Below, piece after piece: positions 3,142-21,666 of a DNA stretch of 21,666 nt. Every line of letters starts with the position of its first letter. The first letter of the stretch is position 1. Source of the stretch: Candidatus Micrarchaeota archaeon. GTDB lineage: Archaea > B1Sed10-29 > JAJRYS01. The notes below the pieces were generated by a model. The model saw only the letters and a list, made by a program, of their open reading frames with translations, had not been told where the DNA came from and did not search any database. The stretch covers positions 1-21,666 of the forward strand of contig CAZXTN010000009.1 of NCBI GenBank assembly GCA_964643685.1. The letters run 5' to 3'. Both the position numbers and the translations under genes were made by a program.

Positions 3142-3249
3142 TGGACTCGCCGCGATTTTCAAAGCAAACGCAACTTGTTGCGTTGATGTTTTTGAACGCG
3201 GGACATCCTGCATGCGAAGCAGGTATTCTACCAACTGAATTACGAGCCC
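3142..3249 (-). tRNA. tRNA-Ala(CGC) with a 35-nt intron in the T-loop (59/60); CCA not encoded
   Basis: Acceptor GGGCTCG/CGAGTCC with G3:U70, D-arm ATTC/GAAT, anticodon arm CCTGC-TT-CGC-AT-GCAGG, T-stem CCGCG/CGCGG. Removing 3156-3190 restores the T-loop TTCAAAT and gives 73 nt. Confidence 0.95.
3156..3190 (-). other. Non-canonical tRNA-Ala intron (59/60) with a relaxed BHB motif
   Basis: Central helix TTCA/TGAA, bulges AA|A and AA|T, internal palindrome AACGCAAC-AA-GTTGCGTT. Confidence 0.9.
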
Positions 3250-4779: not shown

Positions 4780-5532
4780 CTATTTAAATTCTTTTTCAAG
4801 CAATTCATCAACTTTTTTCTTAACTAATTCAGCGGCTTTTTCAGAAGAAACTTCTCCCTTGCCATGCCTCTTAATTAATTTATCAACATCAATTTCAATG
4901 ACTTTGACCCCCTTGTTTTCCAAATCCTTAATTAAACTATCAAGAGCCTTATCCATTTTCCTTAAATCCGCAATGTTCTCATGCTTGTCTTTGACACCTT
5001 TCCTTTTTGAAATGTCTTTCATTGCTTCCTCTGGTTTTCTACGCGGGATAACAACGATATCAGGATAAGCAGTTCCAGAAAGAGTTTTAAGCAAAGGATA
5101 CAGCACTTTCGTCCTTTTCTTGTTATTATGAATCTCTTTGAACAACTCCAAGTCAAGACGAGGGTACCTGTCATTAACCATTATGTCCTTGCCTTTCTCT
5201 TCCATGATTTTAATAACAGGAAAAGACAAGTAATAAAAAGTGTTTTTAAGGCTTTCGAAAGCTGTTTTTTCAGAAGGAATTCTTCCAATAGCGTCAAAAA
5301 CCTTGCCTGCCTTGCGAGCAACCTTGCCTGAATTAGAATAGCTTCCAAGCTTCAAATAACCTGCTTTTTCACCATACTCCTTTTCATATTCCCTTGCTAC
5401 TTTTCTTGAAATTGAAGACTTGCCGCTGCTGTCAATGCCTATGAACGCAACACGCAAAGGCCTTTTCCTTGAATTTTTAAATTCCCTGCTTCTGTTCTTT
5501 TCCCTTAATTGCTTCAGCTTCTGCCTGAACAT
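4780..5532 (-). CDS. Divergent thymidylate kinase-like P-loop NMP kinase
   Basis: VAFIGIDSSGKSS P-loop, VNDRY (the DRY motif of dTMP kinases), YPDIVV, PEEAMKDISKR and lid region DKHEN. Basic N-terminal extension. Confidence 0.7.
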   Translation of the reverse strand: MFRQKLKQLREKNRSREFKNSRKRPLRVAFIGIDSSGKSSISRKVAREYEKEYGEKAGYLKLGSYSNSGKVARKAGKVFDAIGRIPSEKTAFESLKNTFYYLSFPVIKIMEEKGKDIMVNDRYPRLDLELFKEIHNNKKRTKVLYPLLKTLSGTAYPDIVVIPRRKPEEAMKDISKRKGVKDKHENIADLRKMDKALDSLIKDLENKGVKVIEIDVDKLIKRHGKGEVSSEKAAELVKKKVDELLEKEFK

Positions 5533-5797: not shown

Positions 5798-5929
5798 TTT
5801 TTCTGAATGCAGGGGATCCTCACCGAAACGCGAGGGGCTTGCTGCCCCTCTCATTTCTAGGGAGTTTCTGATCTTCCCGCAGACCACATGCGCTTCGCTT
5901 AGTGACCTGGTTTTTCTGAATGCAGGGGA
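5798..5929. repeat. 19-bp direct repeat duplicating the tRNA-Leu 3' end and flanking a 94-bp hairpin-rich insert
   Basis: TTTTTCTGAATGCAGGGGA at 5798-5816 and 5911-5929. AGGGAGTTTC also recurs at 5859-5868 and 5930-5939. Confidence 0.92.
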
Positions 5930-5934
5930 AGGGA

Positions 5935-6045
5935 GTTTCGTCAGCTGTCCCCAACTGAAAGCGGACTATTTTTCTTTTTTAAAAAGAAAACCAGACGACT
6001 GAACGAAGTGAACGTCGTCTCAGCCCGCCAGCCGGATACGGCTGT
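5935..6045 (-). other. Long, highly structured T-loop intron (59/60) with a BHL-type splice motif
   Basis: Central helix TTCG/CGAA, bulge AC|T, 5' site AA|A opposite a single A. Contains four hairpins and an 8-bp enclosing stem. Confidence 0.88.
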
Positions 6046-6077
6046 TTCGAACCCTCGAACACACTGAGTGAATGGAT

Positions 6078-6109
6078 AACCCATCACCAGCTTTTGTTTA
6101 GATGGAGAT
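6078..6109 (-). other. Canonical tRNA-Leu intron (37/38) with a BHB motif
   Basis: Central helix CTCA/TGGG, bulges AG|A and TT|A, inner helix TC/GA. Confidence 0.92.
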
Positions 6110-6162
6110 CTTGAGTCCATCGCCGTTGACCGCTTGGCTACCCCTGCATTGTTGTGTGTTTT

Positions 6163-9752: not shown

Positions 9753-9808
9753 ACTACAACCACCTTACTTAGCTTGATTTAAAATCACGCAAAGTAAAAA
9801 GCAAAAGC

Positions 9809-10078
9809 GGCGGGAAGCTCTGGAACGCCCCCAATGCCTCAGGTTCAGTTGACTGCAGCTGCCCTCGTTTCTGCAACCCCAAAGACATCCAATGACCTTG
9901 TTATGGCTGCTCCGATCAAGGCCTGACCAGGTTCCAAAGCCACTGAATCCAATGGGACAGAAAGTCAGCAGGCAGTTGCAGGCTGAAGCCCTTGGCATGG
10001 AAACTGCTTCCAGGATTCGGCTCTCCCTAAAGCAGATTTGAAGACAGGGGACTGCTAACCCCCAAGCCTATTCCCGCC
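9809..10078 (-). ncRNA. ffs: Archaeal SRP (7S) RNA, about 270 nt
   Basis: Helix 1 GGCGGGAA/TTCCCGCC; Alu domain GGGGG-TTAGCAG-TCCCC-TGT with AGCAG/CTGCT loop-loop complementarity; helix 8 GGTCAGGCC..GGAGCAGCC; upstream TTTAAAAA box; downstream U-tracts. Confidence 0.93.
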
Positions 10079-10283
10079 AATTAAATTTATTGCCTTTTGT
10101 TTTTTAAAATACCTACTGCCTATGAAAATTTACTTGAAAAAAGCTGAAAAATAGTGAAAGTTGAAGCAGAAAATTTTTTGAAAAAAATCTCCTTGAAATT
10201 GAAAAAAGCTGAAAAAATTCAGCTTCAATACTTGCCTTGCTGTTGCTGTTTTTTCGTTTGACTTGTTTTGCTCTTGTTGATTG

Positions 10284-16589: not shown

Positions 16590-17249
16590 ATGGCTGAAAA
16601 GATAATATGCGACGCAGGACCATTAATTTCACTAGCTGACAACTGCGCAATCAACCTGCTGTCAAAATTCAACAACAATTTTTACATAACAAAAAGCGTT
16701 GAAAAAGAAATAGTCAACCACCCGATGGACACTAAAAGATTCAAGCTAAAAGCAATAATGCTCAAAGAAGCAATTCAAAAAGGAGAAATAAAAAGAATAG
16801 AAGAAACAAGCAAAATGCAGCAAGAAGCAAGAGAAGTGATTGAATTAGCAAACAACCTGCTTCATGTCCAAGGAAAAGCAATTAAAATAGTTCATGAAGG
16901 AGAAGCAAGCGCAATAGGCGCCTTAATTGCCCTAAATGAAAAAAACTTGTTAATAGATGAGAGGACAACAAGGCACTTGATAGAAGACCCTGAAAAAGTA
17001 AAAGAATACATGCAGTCAAAAACAAAATACAAAATCAAAATGAACGAAAACGTCCTAAGAGAACTGCAGAAAAAATTCAAAGGAATAAAAGTAATCCGCT
17101 CATCTGAACTAATTGCAAACGCTTATGAAAAAAACCTACTGCCATGGAAAGACGCAAAGTCACTTGAAGCAGCTTTATATGCAGTGAAATTCGCCGGCTG
17201 TTCAATAACAAAAGAAGAAATAAAAGAATACGTCAGAATGCTCGGGTGA
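16590..17249 (+). CDS. PIN-domain protein (DUF3368/COG2405-like)
   Basis: IICDAGPLISLA, ITKSVEKEI, HEGEASAI and LLIDERTTR supply the acidic PIN active-site residues. Confidence 0.85.
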   Translation: MAEKIICDAGPLISLADNCAINLLSKFNNNFYITKSVEKEIVNHPMDTKRFKLKAIMLKEAIQKGEIKRIEETSKMQQEAREVIELANNLLHVQGKAIKIVHEGEASAIGALIALNEKNLLIDERTTRHLIEDPEKVKEYMQSKTKYKIKMNENVLRELQKKFKGIKVIRSSELIANAYEKNLLPWKDAKSLEAALYAVKFAGCSITKEEIKEYVRMLG

Positions 17250-21515: not shown

Positions 21516-21666
21516 GAGGCATTCGCCACGCTCAGCCCCATTTAAAAACAACTAAAAACATAATAATAAAACGCTGCAATGACGACACCAGGCTGAATGA
21601 CAGCAGCCGTATCCGGCTTCGTTTCGCTCTTGCTTTGCAAGATGCGAGAACTGGCGGGAATAAGCT
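21516..21666. repeat. Cluster of palindromic modules shared with the tRNA-Leu locus
   Basis: 14-nt-loop hairpin at 21516-21539; CAGCCGTATCCGGCT at 21604-21618, identical to the intron (minus strand 6044-6030); hairpin at 21621-21651. Confidence 0.75.

Follow-up and report, generated by a model that had tools for sequence, protein, structure and literature searches.

Why does the beginning of a transfer RNA (tRNA) intron recur outside the tRNA gene to which it belongs, with a hairpin set into it? The question is raised by the window studied here, a stretch of 21,666 nt that is the entire contig C9 in an assembly from a Candidatus Micrarchaeota archaeon (12 contigs, 695 kb, 36% GC, archaeal, 92% complete). 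At 21604-21658 of the + strand, a 15-nt arm is followed by a 32-nt insert, CT and GGCGGG, while on the minus strand at 6044-6024, inside the tRNA-Leu(CAA) gene, the same 15-nt arm runs directly into GGCGGG; a preliminary description of the window, made from the sequence alone, had called these a filled site and an empty site, and the pair is indeed there. The 55 nt at 21604-21658 are, in our judgement, probably the core of a ~67-nt lineage-specific insertion, derived from an intron and tolerated by a conserved box C/D small RNA (sRNA), where it occupies the apical loop of the C'/D' kink-turn stem.

In what follows G000 is the source assembly, with its contigs given as C1, C3 and so on; G001, G002 and G004 belong to the same family, G004 representing a sister genus, and G005, G007, G014, G015 and G017 to the same order as G000, so that the relatives compared are those at the level of family and order.

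A predicted box C/D sRNA gene with an enlarged central loop

The final 55 nt of C9 are identical to C3:1-55, and the sequence can therefore be read onward into C3. A 107-nt query searched in 41 genomes gave matches in G001, G002 and G004 at E <= 1e-5 and in G005, G007, G014, G015 and G017 at E 0.01-0.035; the stretch at ~21573-21600, just upstream of the repeated arm, is conserved in other genomes. Seven matched loci were inspected, and the same small gene was found in six of them. The joined C9-C3 sequence is collinear with this single RNA gene of the relatives, and the box C/D sRNA gene predicted from it spans the joint, from window position 21573 to C3:89. (The seventh of the inspected loci, in G029, was rejected as unrelated and coding-like.) The parts of the gene are as follows.

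21540..21548, + strand: TATA-like A/T-rich box, ~25-30 nt upstream of the sRNA 5' stem, a putative promoter
21573..21577, + strand: 5' strand of the terminal stem, GCTGC, with its partner GCAGC at C3:85-89
21579..21585, + strand: box C, AUGACGA (a variant of RUGAUGA), with the same position and sequence in G001, G002 and G004
21586..21596, + strand: D' guide, 11 nt, its core CACCAGGCU identical in 7/7 genomes
21597..21600, + strand: box D', AUGA, forming the C'/D' kink-turn with AAU-GA-UUU at C3:61-68
21601..21604, + strand: canonical stem of the kink-turn, CAGC, with its partner GCUG at C3:57-60
C3:62-68: box C', AUGAUUU, with A62 and U63 in the bulge AAU (C3:61-63), G64-A65 in the tandem pairs and then U66-U68
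C3:69-80: D guide, 12 nt
C3:81-84: box D, CAGA

The gene was aligned between G000 and G001, G002, G004, G014, G015 and G017. All seven aligned genes have a covarying terminal stem, box C, an 11-nt D' guide, NNGA as D' (in the relatives at an equal distance from box C), C', a 12-nt D guide and box D. The terminal stem is GCTGC/GCAGC in G000, G001, G002 and G004; in G014, G015 and G017, where box C reads AUGAAGA or AUGAGGA, its core is ACCGT/ACGGT and the pairs beside the core differ. A/T boxes lie at the same distance upstream in G002, G004 and G015. Read by eye from the sequence, the kink-turn consists of tandem G:A/A:G pairs beside the CAGC/GCUG stem and opposite the 3-nt bulge AAU; the rule given in a figure legend of PMC6009581 (this and all other papers are cited here from excerpts) is that tandem G:A and A:G pairs adjoin the canonical stem. 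Fibrillarin, Nop5, two proteins of the L7Ae family and a splicing endonuclease are all encoded in the assembly, and no Rfam family covers the locus. With boxes C and D closed by a terminal stem, a D'/C' kink-turn, a guide whose fifth nucleotide faces a target (see below) and the partner proteins, the locus is a predicted box C/D sRNA.

What sets the G000 gene apart is the distance from D' to the D-guide core, which is 80 nt as against 21 nt in G004, 23 in G001, 16 in G002, 14 in G015, 12 in G014 and 15 in G017. The same CAGC/GCTG stem is present in G001, closed by a loop of 6 nt, in whose place G000 has ~67 nt. The 55 nt of 21604-21658 make up the main part of this insert, which is absent from the six relatives. 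In the predicted fold the whole sRNA is one long irregular hairpin, the insert extending the kink-turn stem, and because it is modelled as stacking on that stem, the guide ribonucleoprotein would probably still be able to assemble. The mature sRNA would then be ~125 nt long, with the insert retained as a tolerated passenger.

A strict box C/D pattern run over the genome returned one match, C1:220313-220376 (minus strand), a candidate for another C/D sRNA; its terminal stem has 5 bp and its spacer 18 nt.

Targets of the two guides

The D guide can form 11 base pairs with the tRNA-Leu(CAA) precursor, at its anticodon loop.

6106..6116, - strand: complement of the D guide in pre-tRNA-Leu(CAA), with C34 (6113) opposite the fifth nucleotide upstream of box D

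The duplex, at -16.9 kcal/mol, also takes in 4 nt of the canonical intron of the precursor. When the complement of the 12-mer guide was searched with up to 2 mismatches, tRNA-Leu(CAA) was the sole non-self match with no more than 1 among the 21 recovered, and one of those with 2 mismatches was a tRNA-Leu(UAA)-like gene. In G002 and G004 the guide likewise pairs with the tRNA-Leu(CAA) of the same genome, which makes three of the three genomes in which that tRNA was located; in G001, G014, G015 and G017 it was not located with a gene-shaped pattern or an 11-nt pattern. We predict that the D guide directs 2'-O-methylation of C34 in tRNA-Leu(CAA), a prediction held, with the rest of the explanation to which it belongs, as probable. 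The target would thus be the very tRNA in whose T-loop intron the empty site lies. Guides for position 34 of both tRNA-Leu(CAA) and tRNA-Leu(UAA) are known from Pyrococcus (PMC7994747).

The repeated arm is the 5' module of a T-loop intron family

The insert itself, and the tRNA gene with which it shares sequence, can be divided as follows.

21602..21618, + strand: left arm, 17 nt identical to the intron copy at C1:112265-112281
21604-21618, + strand: inner 15 nt of the left arm, identical to the tRNA-Leu(CAA) intron at 6044-6030 (minus strand)
21619..21650, + strand: 32-nt hairpin of 12 bp with one bulged U and a UUU loop
21651..21658, + strand: right arm, CTGGCGGG, which in the introns is the 5' strand of helix P2 and in the sRNA pairs back onto the left arm
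21652..21666, + strand: stretch like the RNA of the signal recognition particle (SRP), the last 15 nt of the contig, matching the SRP RNA 5' end (10079-10065, minus strand) at 14/15 positions
5921..6147, - strand: tRNA-Leu(CAA) gene, with a canonical 37/38 intron at 6109-6078 (32 nt) and a T-loop 59/60 intron at 6045-5935 (111 nt)

That the recurrence of the arm is unlikely to be due to chance, as first proposed, is borne out by a search for the 15-mer with up to 3 mismatches, which finds 4 matches in the window where 0.03 are expected, a number reached by none of 100 shuffles; the arm is nearly palindromic, and the 4 matches are 2 sites, each found on both strands. The stems attributed to the insert hairpin are present in the minimum-energy fold of the 55 nt (-22.2 kcal/mol, z = -2.42, equalled or bettered by 3 of 200 shuffles). 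Over the 695-kb assembly CTGGCGGG was found six times, at five distinct loci (C3:40 being the same site as C9:21651), and all five belong to one family, being four T-loop introns and the sRNA site.

The "empty site" is the conserved 5' module of the whole 59/60 intron family, which the preliminary description had missed. Allowing at most 1 mismatch, the arm has 8 copies in G000, 7 of them right after a T-loop (GGTTCRAA) and the eighth at the sRNA site, and 6 copies in G004, 5 after a T-loop and 1 elsewhere; it was found, at the same stringency, in none of the remaining 16 of the order's 18 genomes. ARAGORN reports no gene in the unspliced tRNA-Leu(CAA) locus and a tRNA-Leu(CAA) with a 32-nt canonical intron once 6045-5935 is removed. 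By eye, the borders of the T-loop intron form a 4-bp helix, TTCG/CGAA, with 3-nt bulges (AA|A and AC|U) and an extra A opposite the 5' bulge. Since the tRNA is restored on removal and the splice sites lie in 3-nt bulges around a 4-bp helix, 6045-5935 is classed as a bulge-helix-bulge (BHB) intron. A scan of trial junctions gave tRNA calls at 7/7 of the G000 sites, five of them clean (Leu-CAG, Ile-TAT, Trp-CCA, Tyr-GTA and Leu-CAA) and two judged unreliable (C2:13289 and C2:39880); for G004 there were calls at 4/5 sites, one of them odd (C22), and the fifth lies outside the T-loop pattern used. Of the 12 intron copies, 10 show complete pairing of P1, the hairpin that the arm forms by itself, and the remaining 2 each have a single mismatch; one compensatory change, from C-G to A-U, is seen. 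Within the introns GGCGGGCU pairs with a downstream AGUCCGC around variable hairpins. Introns at 59/60, together with a broad-specificity endonuclease, are known in ARMAN-2 (PMC3239211).

Some further features of the tRNA genes were noted. A perfect 19-nt direct repeat (5798-5816 and 5911-5929), made up of the last 9 nt of tRNA-Leu(CAA) and 10 nt of trailer, surrounds a 94-nt GC-rich insert; downstream of the tRNA at C6:36297 there is likewise a duplicated tRNA 3' end. At 3193-3249 of the window (minus strand) there is a weak Rfam tRNA match (30.3 bits, just over threshold, with most of the T arm unaligned) that ARAGORN does not report and that may be another interrupted tRNA gene. The tRNA-Trp(CCA) gene at C6 ~17130-17240 of G000 has both a T-loop intron and a 54-nt canonical intron containing a GATGATGA box, which may be an intron-encoded C/D guide of the kind known in other archaea.

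Copies of the arm outside tRNA genes

In agreement with what had been supposed from the window, intron sequence is not confined to tRNA genes. The arm stands at three non-tRNA places: the sRNA site, C1:236951-237004 and G004:C9:5347. All three have extra hairpin sequence at one junction, between ...CGGCT and GGCGG. The search of the genome for further copies, suggested earlier, thus recovered both the arm at other loci and the hairpin at C1:236966: with up to 8 mismatches the 32-nt insert has three matches in the genome, at two distinct loci, the sRNA site and its sole other copy at C1:236966-236997 (3 mismatches). A 22-nt pattern for the hairpin had no match in the GTDB species genomes, and one for the sRNA 5' half had none in the metagenomes. 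Fifteen loci returned by a search for other filled arms in JGI metagenomes were discarded as chance matches, on unrelated contigs of 43-69% GC and several of them in one bacterial gene.

The copy at C1:236951-237004 is 87% identical to the 55 nt of the sRNA site and begins immediately 3' of a stop codon, that of a gene (pilin) whose 145-aa product has a class III signal peptide. Its predicted hairpin is more nearly perfect (-28.3 kcal/mol, z = -5), and its arms depart from the intron consensus at 5/23 positions, where those of the sRNA site equal it at 23/23. The local alignment continues for 11 nt further upstream, across the D' box of the sRNA and the stem that G001 also has; because it reaches into sequence that is ancestral in the sRNA, the C1 copy looks like a partial copy of the sRNA interior. 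Duplication of the flanks at this copy is not significant (1151 of 2000 shuffles were as good).

The G004 copy, 148 nt downstream of the SRP RNA, consists of the 15-nt arm, two different hairpins (~47 nt) and then TGGCGGCT. The region has a large predicted structure (z = -6.3), and nothing beyond the arm junction sequence is shared between it and G000. It is part of a strongly folding element of ~135 nt at G004:C9 ~5278-5414 (L030 579-715), between the SRP RNA and a multi-intron tRNA, for which Rfam has no family.

The preliminary description had read these sequences as mobile palindromic modules that nest in one another, possibly with a 2-bp target duplication. One half of this stands, in that the arm occurs outside tRNAs; the other is not supported, the 32-nt hairpin never being free-standing and occurring only with arms, at its two loci. 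Nor could the CT target duplication be upheld: the letters duplicated at the junction are CT in two of the non-tRNA copies and T only in the G004 copy, which can share no more than that single T, and a CT duplication is indistinguishable from a 34-nt insert that begins or ends with CT by chance.

Origin of the insertion

The insert appears to be a mosaic. Its first 15-17 nt and an 8-nt stretch would have been copied from the conserved 5' module of the 59/60 T-loop introns, with a hairpin of 32-34 nt between the two arm pieces, and the next 15 nt are similar to the 5' end of the SRP RNA (Rfam places this archaeal RNA at 9808-10079 of the window). The 14/15 match to the latter suggests that pieces from several abundant RNAs were brought together. 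(One more copy of the SRP RNA 5'-end stretch, with 1 mismatch, lies at C1:53339-53353.) The direction of copying was presumably from intron to sRNA, since the intron family is the sole context that is conserved in both genera and has a visible structural constraint. As for the means, copying at the DNA level, by recombination or by template switching between GC-rich RNA-gene helices that share CAGC...GCTG ends, appears the most plausible, given that a splice motif and a consistent duplication are both lacking and that no reverse transcriptase (PF00078) was found in the assembly; less likely is a cut-and-paste element that would have duplicated 2 bp of its target.

Several observations weigh against a conserved sRNA carrying a tolerated, intron-derived insertion. 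The contig break falls exactly at the insert. Boxes C (AUGACGA) and D (CAGA) are each one position off the consensus, RUGAUGA and CUGA. No target for the D' guide was found in the 92%-complete assembly, in two registers, with G:U allowed, over the whole genome and the ribosomal RNA operon; the nearest match, with 1 mismatch and in a different register, is in a gene resembling tRNA-Lys(UUU), at C1:239354. A stretch of 67 nt is flanked by a 9-nt direct repeat (GCTGAATGA, at 21592-21600 and C3:57-65), which 20 of 2000 shuffles equal and which could be a target duplication. Finally, in all three non-tRNA copies the junction holds a hairpin, which every one of the 12 intron copies lacks, and position 16 of the arm is T; a separate lineage of elements fits this at least as well as three independent copyings from introns. 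As regards the third of these points, tRNA-directed sRNAs usually carry one orphan guide (PMC7994747), a pattern into which a D' guide without a target would fit. As regards the fourth, we do not take the 9-nt repeat for a target duplication, since one copy is the guide end plus D' and the other stem plus C', and G001 has a weaker similarity of the same kind.

Among other explanations, one possibility is that these are mobile, nested elements, the arm module having transposed from a tRNA intron and the hairpin later into the arm, with short target duplications. The three non-tRNA copies in two genera, with hairpins nested at the same arm junction, are what it would lead one to expect, as are the second copy of the composite module at the stop codon of the pilin gene, the 9-nt repeat around the sRNA insert and the 19-nt repeat that duplicates the tRNA-Leu 3' end around its 94-nt insert. 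However, the hairpin never occurs without arms, the composite has only 2 copies in 695 kb, the G004 copy lacks the CT duplication, and the ends of the insert have no terminal inverted repeats; the C1 copy, with its 11 aligned nt upstream, looks as though part of the sRNA gene had been copied rather than the module inserted on its own, and there is no known transposase-like partner, nor was a reverse transcriptase found in the assembly. On balance we regard this origin as unlikely. A miniature inverted-repeat transposable element (MITE) or small palindromic transposon was rejected in particular: it has no inverted termini, the length of the duplication is inconstant, there are two copies, and the patterns used found no matches elsewhere.

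Alternatively, the arm could be a functional RNA motif common to the introns and the sRNA, either a hairpin bound by a protein or a self-complementary tether holding the guide to its intron-bearing precursor. Its 15/15 identity at non-orthologous places in two genera would be explained in this way, and so would the absence of any change from the intron consensus in the sRNA arms (0/23, against 5/23 in the C1 copy). The target of the sRNA is itself an intron-bearing pre-tRNA, with 4 nt of whose canonical intron the guide pairs, and methylation on an intron-containing precursor is known for tRNA-Trp (PMC7994747). Yet an arm present in 7 different tRNAs would confer no specificity, a crude duplex between the spacer and pre-tRNA-Leu (-50.5) is no better than those of shuffled spacers (mean -49.7, sd 4.5), in the predicted fold of the sRNA the long hairpin buries the arm, and six relatives dispense with it. 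A shared function is distinctly unlikely.

It is very improbable that the insert is a BHB intron of the sRNA gene, to be excised by the endonuclease so as to leave a normal 60-nt sRNA. The insert does start like the T-loop introns, its terminal GCTG pairs with the CAGC at its start as does the inner helix of those introns, a splicing endonuclease is encoded, and enzymes of broad specificity are known in related ultrasmall archaea (PMC3239211); but by eye there is no 4-bp helix with two 3-nt bulges at the borders of 21604 to C3:56, the flanks are direct repeats and not complementary, and removal between the repeats leaves no D'-C' loop. With no bulge-helix-bulge motif at its borders, the insert is probably left unspliced.

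An assembly artefact, in which the contig end is chimeric or collapsed, is extremely improbable, for although the feature lies within the final 63 nt of the contig and the terminal 55-mer is common to two contigs, the two sRNA halves stand on either side in the correct order, pair with each other and are collinear with six relatives, and the whole module is inside C9 and mostly repeated in C3.

Two other relations between contigs were seen. C8 duplicates at least 15 kb of C1, with identical 70-nt contexts at a constant offset of 75,789 (C1:76465/C8:676, C1:79973/C8:4184, C1:90654/C8:14865 and C1:91804/C8:16015), and is either a redundant contig or a large repeat; and the end of C3 and the start of C6 have sequence in common.

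Relation to known systems and significance

Compared with known tRNA-directed C/D sRNAs, as these appear in the excerpts cited, the insertion is housed in an RNA of familiar design, with a dual-box architecture, a 12-nt guide on the anticodon loop that places position 34 at the fifth nucleotide and a second guide without a target. It differs from them in that the D'-C' spacer of G000 exceeds that of the relatives by ~67 nt and makes a long hairpin in place of the short K-loop, in that boxes C and D are degenerate, and in that the host is a genome-reduced DPANN archaeon. For the introns, the closest parallels in the sources are the non-canonical BHB introns that Micrarchaeota (ARMAN-2) tRNAs have in the T-loop, at 59/60 (PMC3239211), and the "intron transposition" between tRNA genes of Thermoproteales that the same paper cites; position 59/60 and a near-identical module in many tRNAs of one genome are common to these and to G000. 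Unlike what is described there, the module occurs here also outside tRNAs and without a splice motif, in the sRNA, after the pilin gene and, in G004, 3' of the SRP RNA.

In Pyrobaculum, MITE-like elements resembling sRNAs have been reported, and circularisation and re-insertion of C/D sRNAs proposed (PMC6009581). The C1 copy is similar, in so far as part of an sRNA gene, beginning in the D' region, lies at a second, unrelated locus; according to the parts of that paper cited, the differences are that G000 has one extra copy and no inverted repeats, and that the spacer insert was copied rather than the whole sRNA. A tRNA-Trp intron encodes a box C/D guide (PMC7994747), which likewise ties a tRNA intron to a C/D guide acting on an intron-containing precursor, though with the topology reversed: here it is the free-standing guide gene that holds intron-derived sequence.

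The ingredients, judging from the excerpts, are already known: tRNA-Leu wobble methylation guided by C/D sRNAs, introns at 59/60, several tRNAs sharing nearly the same intron, and dispersed elements that resemble sRNAs (PMC6009581 for the last). In the open-access literature searched, nothing was found that describes sequence of a tRNA intron within a C/D sRNA and also at further loci outside tRNA genes, with hairpins nested at one junction. The origin and spread of non-canonical tRNA introns are unsettled in the sources cited, which hold proposals of transposition between tRNA genes and of integration of mobile elements (PMC3239211, PMC3293823). That the start of an intron recurs word for word in non-tRNA genes, with varied hairpins at one junction, points to copying at the DNA level and to modular, nestable sequence, and supplies loci at which presence/absence alleles could be looked for. 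A predicted wobble-methylation guide RNA for tRNA-Leu is added to a genome-reduced DPANN archaeon, and the locus suggests that a guide RNA can take into its central loop an insert of roughly its own length.

A bolder proposal, which we think quite unlikely, is that the intron 5' module is the end of a non-autonomous element which remains active and moves from one structured-RNA gene to another in these DPANN archaea, landing at CAGC/GCUG helix ends and taking up nested hairpins at a fixed junction. Its reach would then include tRNA T-loops, the kink-turn stem of the C/D sRNA and the neighbourhood of the SRP RNA, and it would become an intron where its flanks form a splice motif and an expansion of the host RNA elsewhere. 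If true, this would offer a direct view of how non-canonical archaeal introns arise and spread.

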